This document shows, piece by piece, positions 62,801 to 64,000 of a stretch of DNA of 64,000 nucleotides. The position numbers were made by a program. This DNA is from Escherichia coli (lineage in GTDB: Bacteria; Pseudomonadota; Gammaproteobacteria; Enterobacterales; Enterobacteriaceae). The stretch is taken from assembly GCF_024298765.1 (NCBI RefSeq), contig NZ_CP101210.1, one strand, 5' to 3'. How positions within the stretch are numbered: position 1 is the first letter of the stretch; each line of letters opens with the position of its first letter.

Positions 62801-64000
62801 GTGTTATCCACGGTAAGCGCCACGGTGGCAGTGCTGGATACGGTCAGAATAGTGCGAAATGTTTGTGCACGTCCGGACCCTTCGGCAACGGTTGGTTTGT
62901 AACTTTCGGCAGTATTGCCCACCGCGATTAAATCGCCGTGCTCATCAAATACACCAATTTCCCGGATCCAGAATCCGCCCGTTTCAGGAGGAATAACCAG
63001 CTCCGCAATAATGCGGTTCTGATGTGTTGCGTCCAGGATGACGCGATTAACAGTGTGTCGCCACACCTCATGCACCAGACGGGTCTGCTTACTGTCTGGT
63101 GTGGGCAACGCGCCGCCACCGTCGCCCACGGCCATATGAGTCAGGCGGACAGGCTTACCATCTGGCGCGGCTACCTGAGCTAATTTTTTTGCACCCGTAT
63201 CGGTGATAACGGTTTTAAATTTTCGTGTTGTGGTACTCATGCTTAATCGCCTGGATAAATGGTAATAACTTCACCGTCATAAGTTGCCGCCGCTGCGAAA
63301 ATATCCCCCGGAATTTCCTGAATGATATTCAGCCCTGTCATGTGGCGGCTGACCGGGCGGGCATCAGCAATCAACCGCTCCATTTCCAGATACATTTCCT
63401 CCGTCACGCCACTGTCCAGCGTGCCGACTTCAACGGTAAATGTCCCGGTTCTCCGCCGAACTCCCACCACTCAGACACGCGAATGAGGTATCCCAGCGGC
63501 TCAATGGCCCGGCGCAGTGCGCTGATGGTCCCTTTGTGTCGGTGTATCAGCCATGCATCACGAATAACCTGTCGCTTTGTCTCTTCCGGCCAGTTGCGAT
63601 CCCAGCGGTCAACGGAAAATGCCCAGGCGAGATAAGGCAGCAGATGCACCGGGCAGGTATCCGGTGACCACAGCGTGTTGAGGTCTACCGGGATGTTTGT
63701 AATGCGCGCTCCGACAGCTTCGGCGCAACGCATGAAATTGCTGGCTGATGGTGGTAACAGCGAATTACTCATTGCGCCCACCTTCGCTGATGGTGAACGA
63801 CTCACAGCGCGCCGCCTGTATGTCGCTGATGGCCATATTCTGTGTGGGTTCGATTATCTCCACGCGTTGCACACCGTGCACATGCAGTGCGGCAGCAATG
63901 GCGGATAACGCCACGTCCTGACCGATAAGCCCCTGCTCAGCCAGCCACTTGCTGAACGACGATTCCGCCGCGGCCAGAATAGGTTCGGATTCCGGGCCGG

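Follow-up and report, generated by a model that had tools for sequence, protein, structure and literature searches.

A one-base deletion, recent or artefactual, splits the phage tail protein I gene of a P88-like prophage in Escherichia coli

The gene gpI of a prophage in the 64,000-nucleotide stretch of E. coli DNA analysed here (the window) is, as sequenced, a pseudogene of the phage tail protein I family: its reading frame is interrupted. One A has been lost at the junction of codons Gly110 and Thr111 (GGA ACA becoming GGACA, window positions 63443/63444), and the A left at 63443 serves twice: read in the upstream frame it completes the codon GGA, read in the downstream frame it opens ACA. 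We lean, with modest confidence, towards the reading that a very recent one-base deletion has made gpI a pseudogene in an otherwise intact P88-like prophage. That the strain has an intact 531-nt gpI, from which one A was dropped in the consensus by an assembly or base-calling error, is a serious rival, to which we give a considerable probability, somewhat short of even. The preliminary description had offered just these two options, a pseudogenising mutation or a sequencing error, and both survive the tests made.

The gpI frame opens on the minus strand with the ATG at 63772 and follows the native sequence for 110 codons, ending ..SEWWEFGGEPG, after which come 12 foreign codons (HLPLKSARWTVA, 63407-63442) and a premature TGA (63404-63406). 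The native sequence resumes in the −1 frame with its last 66 codons (TFTVEVGTLDSG...ITIYPGD); this frame encodes TFTVEVGTLDSGVTEEMYLEMERLIADARPVSRHMTGLNIIQEIPGDIFAAAATYDGEVITIYPGD and closes with a TAA (63243-63245) standing 2 nt before the start of gpH (63240). The gene and its neighbours are arranged as follows:

63243..63772, minus strand: gpI, phage tail protein I, baseplate wedge subunit; 530 nt against 531 nt, frameshifted
63443..63444, minus strand: frameshift site with one A lost, from alignments with relatives
63404..63772, minus strand: ORF of the truncated product, with 110 native codons, 12 out-of-frame codons and the premature TGA
63243..63443, minus strand: stranded C-terminal 66 codons (Thr111-Asp176) and TAA in the −1 frame, with no credible start of their own
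63765..64000, minus strand: gpJ, a gp6-like baseplate wedge protein, of which the window contains the 3′ part only; corresponds to P88 gpJ 222-298 at 98.7% identity and to the annotation of strain 8E
61138..63240, minus strand: gpH, tail fibre gene of 700 aa, directly downstream of gpI; the exact protein occurs on 9 public contigs

The first 8 nt of gpI are shared with the 3′ end of gpJ, and gpH begins 164 nt past the premature TGA. The preliminary description had reported a gpI split by a frameshift with an N-terminal ORF of 122 codons, and both points stand, the 122 codons being the 110 native and 12 foreign ones. Its count of 'about 70' C-terminal codons fits a mechanical ORF of 75 codons from the GTG at 63470, whereas the native codons stranded out of frame number 66. 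Similarly, the span of 63243-63805 that it gave is right at 63243, but 63805 is the upstream GTG of a mechanical ORF and the real start is at 63772.

Comparison with orthologous gpI genes, the check that had been proposed, found exactly one A missing. Against the intact 'phage tail protein I' gene of E. coli O111:H8 8E, the window is identical at 530 of 530 positions with a single gap, 8E having CCGGGAACATT where the window has CCGGGACATT, and all relatives aligned at the site have GGGAAC. The switch of frame, previously placed near 63441..63447, does fall there, and one base added after CCGGGA restores the frame as predicted: putting the A back gives a gpI of 176 aa that exact protein look-up finds, residue for residue, on 289 public contigs. 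In tblastn, the two frames match P88 gpI over residues 1-115 (94% identity) and 110-176 (100%), so the likeness is not due to chance. They overlap over 64 nt (63407-63470).

Profile searches place the repaired protein firmly in its family. It matches the TIGR01634 equivalog with 190 bits (cut-off 30.05) over profile positions 1-139 of 139 and Pfam PF09684 (Tail_P2_I) with 173 bits (cut-off 20.6) over positions 1-138 of 139; the truncated protein that is actually encoded covers only positions 1-101 of 139 and 1-109 of 139, respectively. The last 30 profile positions and the C-terminal 35 residues are out of frame in the window. In an alignment of gpI homologues, the break directly follows an invariant Pro109-Gly110, and the frameshift removes the conserved C-terminal third of the protein (66 of 176 residues). 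The position of the gene, between the gp6-like gpJ and the tail fibre gene H, follows the same order as in P88, P2 and 8E.

The allele itself is private. A 70-nt query centred on the site found the deletion in none of the 719 complete E. coli genomes that have this gene variant; the best matches are 98.6% identical over a span of 71 nt, and all 719 genomes have the extra base. The 27-nt deletion junction occurred in no viral, metagenome or species-representative contig, against 68, 28 and 1 contigs, respectively, for the intact junction. Elsewhere the frame is strongly conserved: among full-length gpI copies in the loci fetched, 84 of 85 are clean 531-nt ORFs, the exception lying on a contig of 0.96x coverage. 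A collection of about 15 billion predicted proteins, drawn in part from assemblies of public read sets, contains neither truncated gpI product. Exact look-up of the neighbouring fibre proteins led to four independent assemblies (GCA_008932185.1, Logan ERR1619189, Logan SRR3950476 and ENA ERZ28657195) that match the window exactly over 3.2-5.9 kb around gpI, share the orientation of its invertible segment and keep the extra base at 63443, the only consistent difference. Another assembly, GCA_017785835.1, is identical to the window at 13,013 of 13,013 positions over 49061-62073. Besides the gpI deletion, no private difference was found over about 15 kb of in-window prophage. As the sole private difference, the deletion should be either extremely recent or artefactual.

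This pattern is what makes an error in the assembly a credible explanation. An isolated error would produce exactly such a singleton, seen here as a deleted base in a sequence that other assemblies match over kilobases and as truncated proteins missing from a very large collection, and real divergence seldom leaves a lone indel with no private substitutions elsewhere in the prophage. The error could have arisen from local low coverage, from compression in the GC-rich CCGGGAAC or from mis-polishing with reads of a second P2-like prophage, many E. coli having two such prophages, which can confuse polishing. However, the host backbone belongs to the same clone as MSHS 133, with 3 SNPs and 0 indels over 46.6 kb, and 216 of 216 homopolymers of at least 5 nt have the same length in the two genomes, which indicates that the assembly is not error-prone. 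The lost base lay in a run of only 2 nt, and a change from AA to A is no typical platform error; the lack of a typical systematic-error context favours a real change. A second prophage indel relative to 8E (A8 at 51277) was also suspected of being a private lesion or an error. This was rejected: it is common to 8 of 16 complete genomes, is annotated as a normal protein of 487 aa and thus turned out to be real. The few SNPs separating the window from its nearest clone-mate, together with the one mismatch to the best matches, point to some real divergence. Prophage tail genes are not selected in a lysogen, which we count in favour of a real mutation. Finally, an independent gpI frameshift annotated in E. 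coli 89-3156 puts such lesions of this gene on record.

The window follows the E. coli chromosome from hchA to pgsA and then through tRNA genes Gly-Cys-Leu, the prophage lying at tRNA-Leu, from about 48.1 kb to past the window end. In the backbone, dgcQ and drpB (10858..12552 and 5475..5756, plus strand) are each interrupted by an internal stop codon. Both stops recur in MSHS 133, where the two genes are annotated as pseudogenes, which makes them lineage-level pseudogenes rather than private ones. The prophage is P88-like (Xuanwuvirus, Peduoviridae), with 93.8-97.3% DNA identity to P88 over shared blocks between 51491 and 64000, and 16 of 16 P88 proteins (U to D, J to invertase) are recovered from its in-window part at 79-100% identity; its head, lysis, replication and integrase regions lie past 64000. 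In tblastn with P88 proteins, D, FI, FII, E, E′, T, U, the invertase, the two fibre-assembly genes and the two fibre C-termini are full length and in a single frame; gpI is the only gene among the P88 homologues in the window that is split over two frames. The earlier suggestion that the frameshift supports a defective prophage finds no other backing in the window: the other P88 tail, baseplate and fibre genes in the window are full length and in one frame, and the in-window prophage is base for base identical to public twins elsewhere.

Two other apparent signs of decay were considered and rejected. The gene for gpD looked truncated, being annotated with 266 aa in 8E and MSHS 133, but P88 gpD aligns in the window over residues 1-366 in one frame. 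Across 51491..58333 and 61138..64000, the genes FI-FII-E-E′-T-U are on the plus strand, and gpD and V-W-J-I-H-G are on the minus strand; this layout of FI-U versus J-I-H, inverted relative to P2, could have been a decay rearrangement, but it is standard in P88-like phages, being shared by the viable phage P88 and by many E. coli prophages at the same site.

Several other features of the prophage deserve mention. An invertible tail-fibre segment of 3.1 kb lies within 58372..62112, between two inverted repeats (59007-59071 and 62048-62112) that share the core TTATC(T/G)AA(A/T)ACCTCGGTTTACAGGAAACGGTAAA, which resembles a crossover site of the Gin/Cin/Pin type. It holds two alternative fibre C-termini and two fibre-assembly genes and adjoins a serine invertase (58372..58956, minus strand). 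Its orientation in the window is opposite to that in strain 8E, and contig breaks in public short-read assemblies fall exactly on the repeats, a pattern suggestive of active switching. Between ogr and gpD lies a cargo ORF (49897..51360, plus strand) that had no match in Pfam or PADLOC searches. Near its 3′ end, a tract of seven or eight A (about 51270-51277) yields forms of 465 or 487 aa. The 16 complete E. coli genomes with the gene divide evenly, 8 with each form, and the window has A8; this tract could provide a variable C-terminus. The tail chaperone pair E (54509..54874) and E′ (54883..55035), both on the plus strand, is 97-98% identical to that of P88; the P2 counterpart is read by −1 programmed frameshift. 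At the prophage end close to tRNA-Leu are a hok/gef-family toxin gene (49062..49202, minus strand) and an ogr/Delta-type late activator (49393..49653, minus strand), in positions identical to those in MSHS 133, hok being 100% identical to P88 gp52.

What the deletion would mean for the phage can be proposed by homology. The minimal baseplate of P2 is made of only four proteins, gpV, gpW, gpJ (gp6-like) and gpI (PMC4604203). The counterpart of gpI, gp7/TssG, is the single-copy member of a 2:1 wedge heterotrimer; the trifurcation unit is built by its C-terminal domain, which also serves as the adaptor (PMC6300606). In the window prophage, gpI would likewise be the single-copy gp7/TssG/Tri2-type subunit of a (gpJ)2-(gpI)1 wedge heterotrimer in a P2-type baseplate. 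As the C-terminal 66 residues are lost, assembly of wedge and baseplate would be expected to fail: by this analogy, truncated gpI could not complete the wedge, and neither baseplate nor tail would form. The prophage could presumably still excise, replicate and lyse, releasing non-infectious tail-less heads. In addition, the stop upstream of gpH may, via polarity, leave the tail fibre genes H and G less strongly expressed.

We consider it very unlikely that the deletion is real and kept for host benefit, the prophage being 'domesticated', or that the allele is leaky, through a slip at G_GGA or re-initiation at Met127. Under domestication, the cargo genes, the hok toxin and immunity would be retained without infectious particles; a leaky allele would lower virion yield without abolishing it.

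Tolerated or programmed recoding, by which the Gly tRNA would slip by −1 from GGA to GGG at CCG-GGA-C before ACA is read, leaving gpI partly functional, seems even harder to credit. Judging from the sequence, a −1 slip in the P site at G_GGA would give back the native residues without change, and any −1 shift in the 64-nt overlap would rescue most of gpI. However, this overlap contains no X_XXY_YYZ heptamer, the junction reading GAA CCG GGA CAU UUA, and the 83 nt downstream show no stimulatory structure: their minimum free energy is −18.3 kcal/mol where shuffled sequences average −20.1 (z = +0.60), and 144 of 200 shuffles fold at least as well. Nor is the two-frame arrangement conserved, in view of the extra base in the complete genomes, the fetched copies that are intact and the four exact twins. 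Since the other copies found encode gpI in one frame, nothing has selected for recoding, and any −1 slip in gpI would be at background level only.

The least probable reading of all is a functional split gene, in which the N-terminal fragment would combine with a C-terminal peptide, restarted at Met127, to rebuild a working wedge subunit. After the premature TGA come CGGAGGAA and a native-frame ATG, and these supply an SD-like GGAGG and the ATG of Met127, 8 nt past the stop. However, the spacing of 2 nt between SD and ATG is poor, residues 111-126 (TFTVEVGTLDSGVTEE), conserved positions included, would be lost, the break falls inside the Tail_P2_I domain (profile position 109 of 139), no product of 50 or 75 aa is on record among the predicted proteins searched, and no naturally split gpI was found among the homologues examined. 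The sequence at 63393..63406 (minus strand), just past the premature TGA, is CGGAGGAAATG, and re-initiation could yield a predicted C-terminal peptide of 50 aa.

In either of the two leading readings, a recent deletion or an error in the consensus, the case is ordinary, a pseudogene or an assembly error, and both the gene and the prophage type are well known. Its main value lies in annotation and quality control: the locus merits an entry as a frameshifted 'phage tail protein I' pseudogene, with a flag for checking at read level. Should the deletion be real, the P88-like prophage of this strain, in all else the same as intact copies in circulation in other E. coli, is predicted to be incapable of building tails. 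It would then show the textbook opening of prophage decay, unaccompanied by other lesions of the in-window prophage, and would bear on the predicted inducibility of the prophage and on phage-mediated transfer for this strain, while adding nothing new on biology.

Among known systems, P88 (Xuanwuvirus P88, Peduoviridae; NC_026014, gpI at 22029..22559) shares with the repaired window gpI 97.7% DNA and 99% protein identity. It also has the gene order of the window: V-W-J-I-H-G, the invertible fibre segment, the DNA invertase, the opposed U-T-E′-E-FII-FI block, D and hok. In contrast to the window, P88 is missing the cargo ORF between ogr and D, and P88 and all other relatives have an uninterrupted gpI of 531 nt, whereas the window gene is without one A. 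The gpI of P2 (NP_046774, 'baseplate assembly protein'), an essential tail gene, is 62% identical to the window protein over its full length; it likewise lies between J and H and has the same invariant ..EWW..PG|TF.. junction. These identities, with the Pfam and TIGR01634 matches, uphold the original identification of a gpI homologue. The label 'P2-like' holds in that the gene is homologous to that of P2, but the phage is P88-like (Xuanwuvirus) and not P2 itself: P2 belongs to a different genus and, unlike the window prophage, has its FI-D tail operon on the same strand as V-G and no invertible fibre segment. Residues 1-174 of the repaired protein also match Tri2 (PA0619) from the baseplate of a Pseudomonas R-type pyocin (PDB 6U5B/6U5K; E = 4e-41, 44% identity). 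These two structures contain 12 chains in total, which fits one copy per wedge; Tri2 comes from a tailocin rather than a phage and is intact, unlike the window gpI, which is the same kind of wedge subunit as TssG of the T6SS and gp7 of T4. The counterpart in E. coli 89-3156 (NZ_CP027366, C6P65_RS15550; locus 1579..2108) belongs to the same prophage family and also has a one-base deletion, annotated by PGAP as 'frameshifted', but at another site (a G5-to-G4 run near codon 155), and is an independent event.
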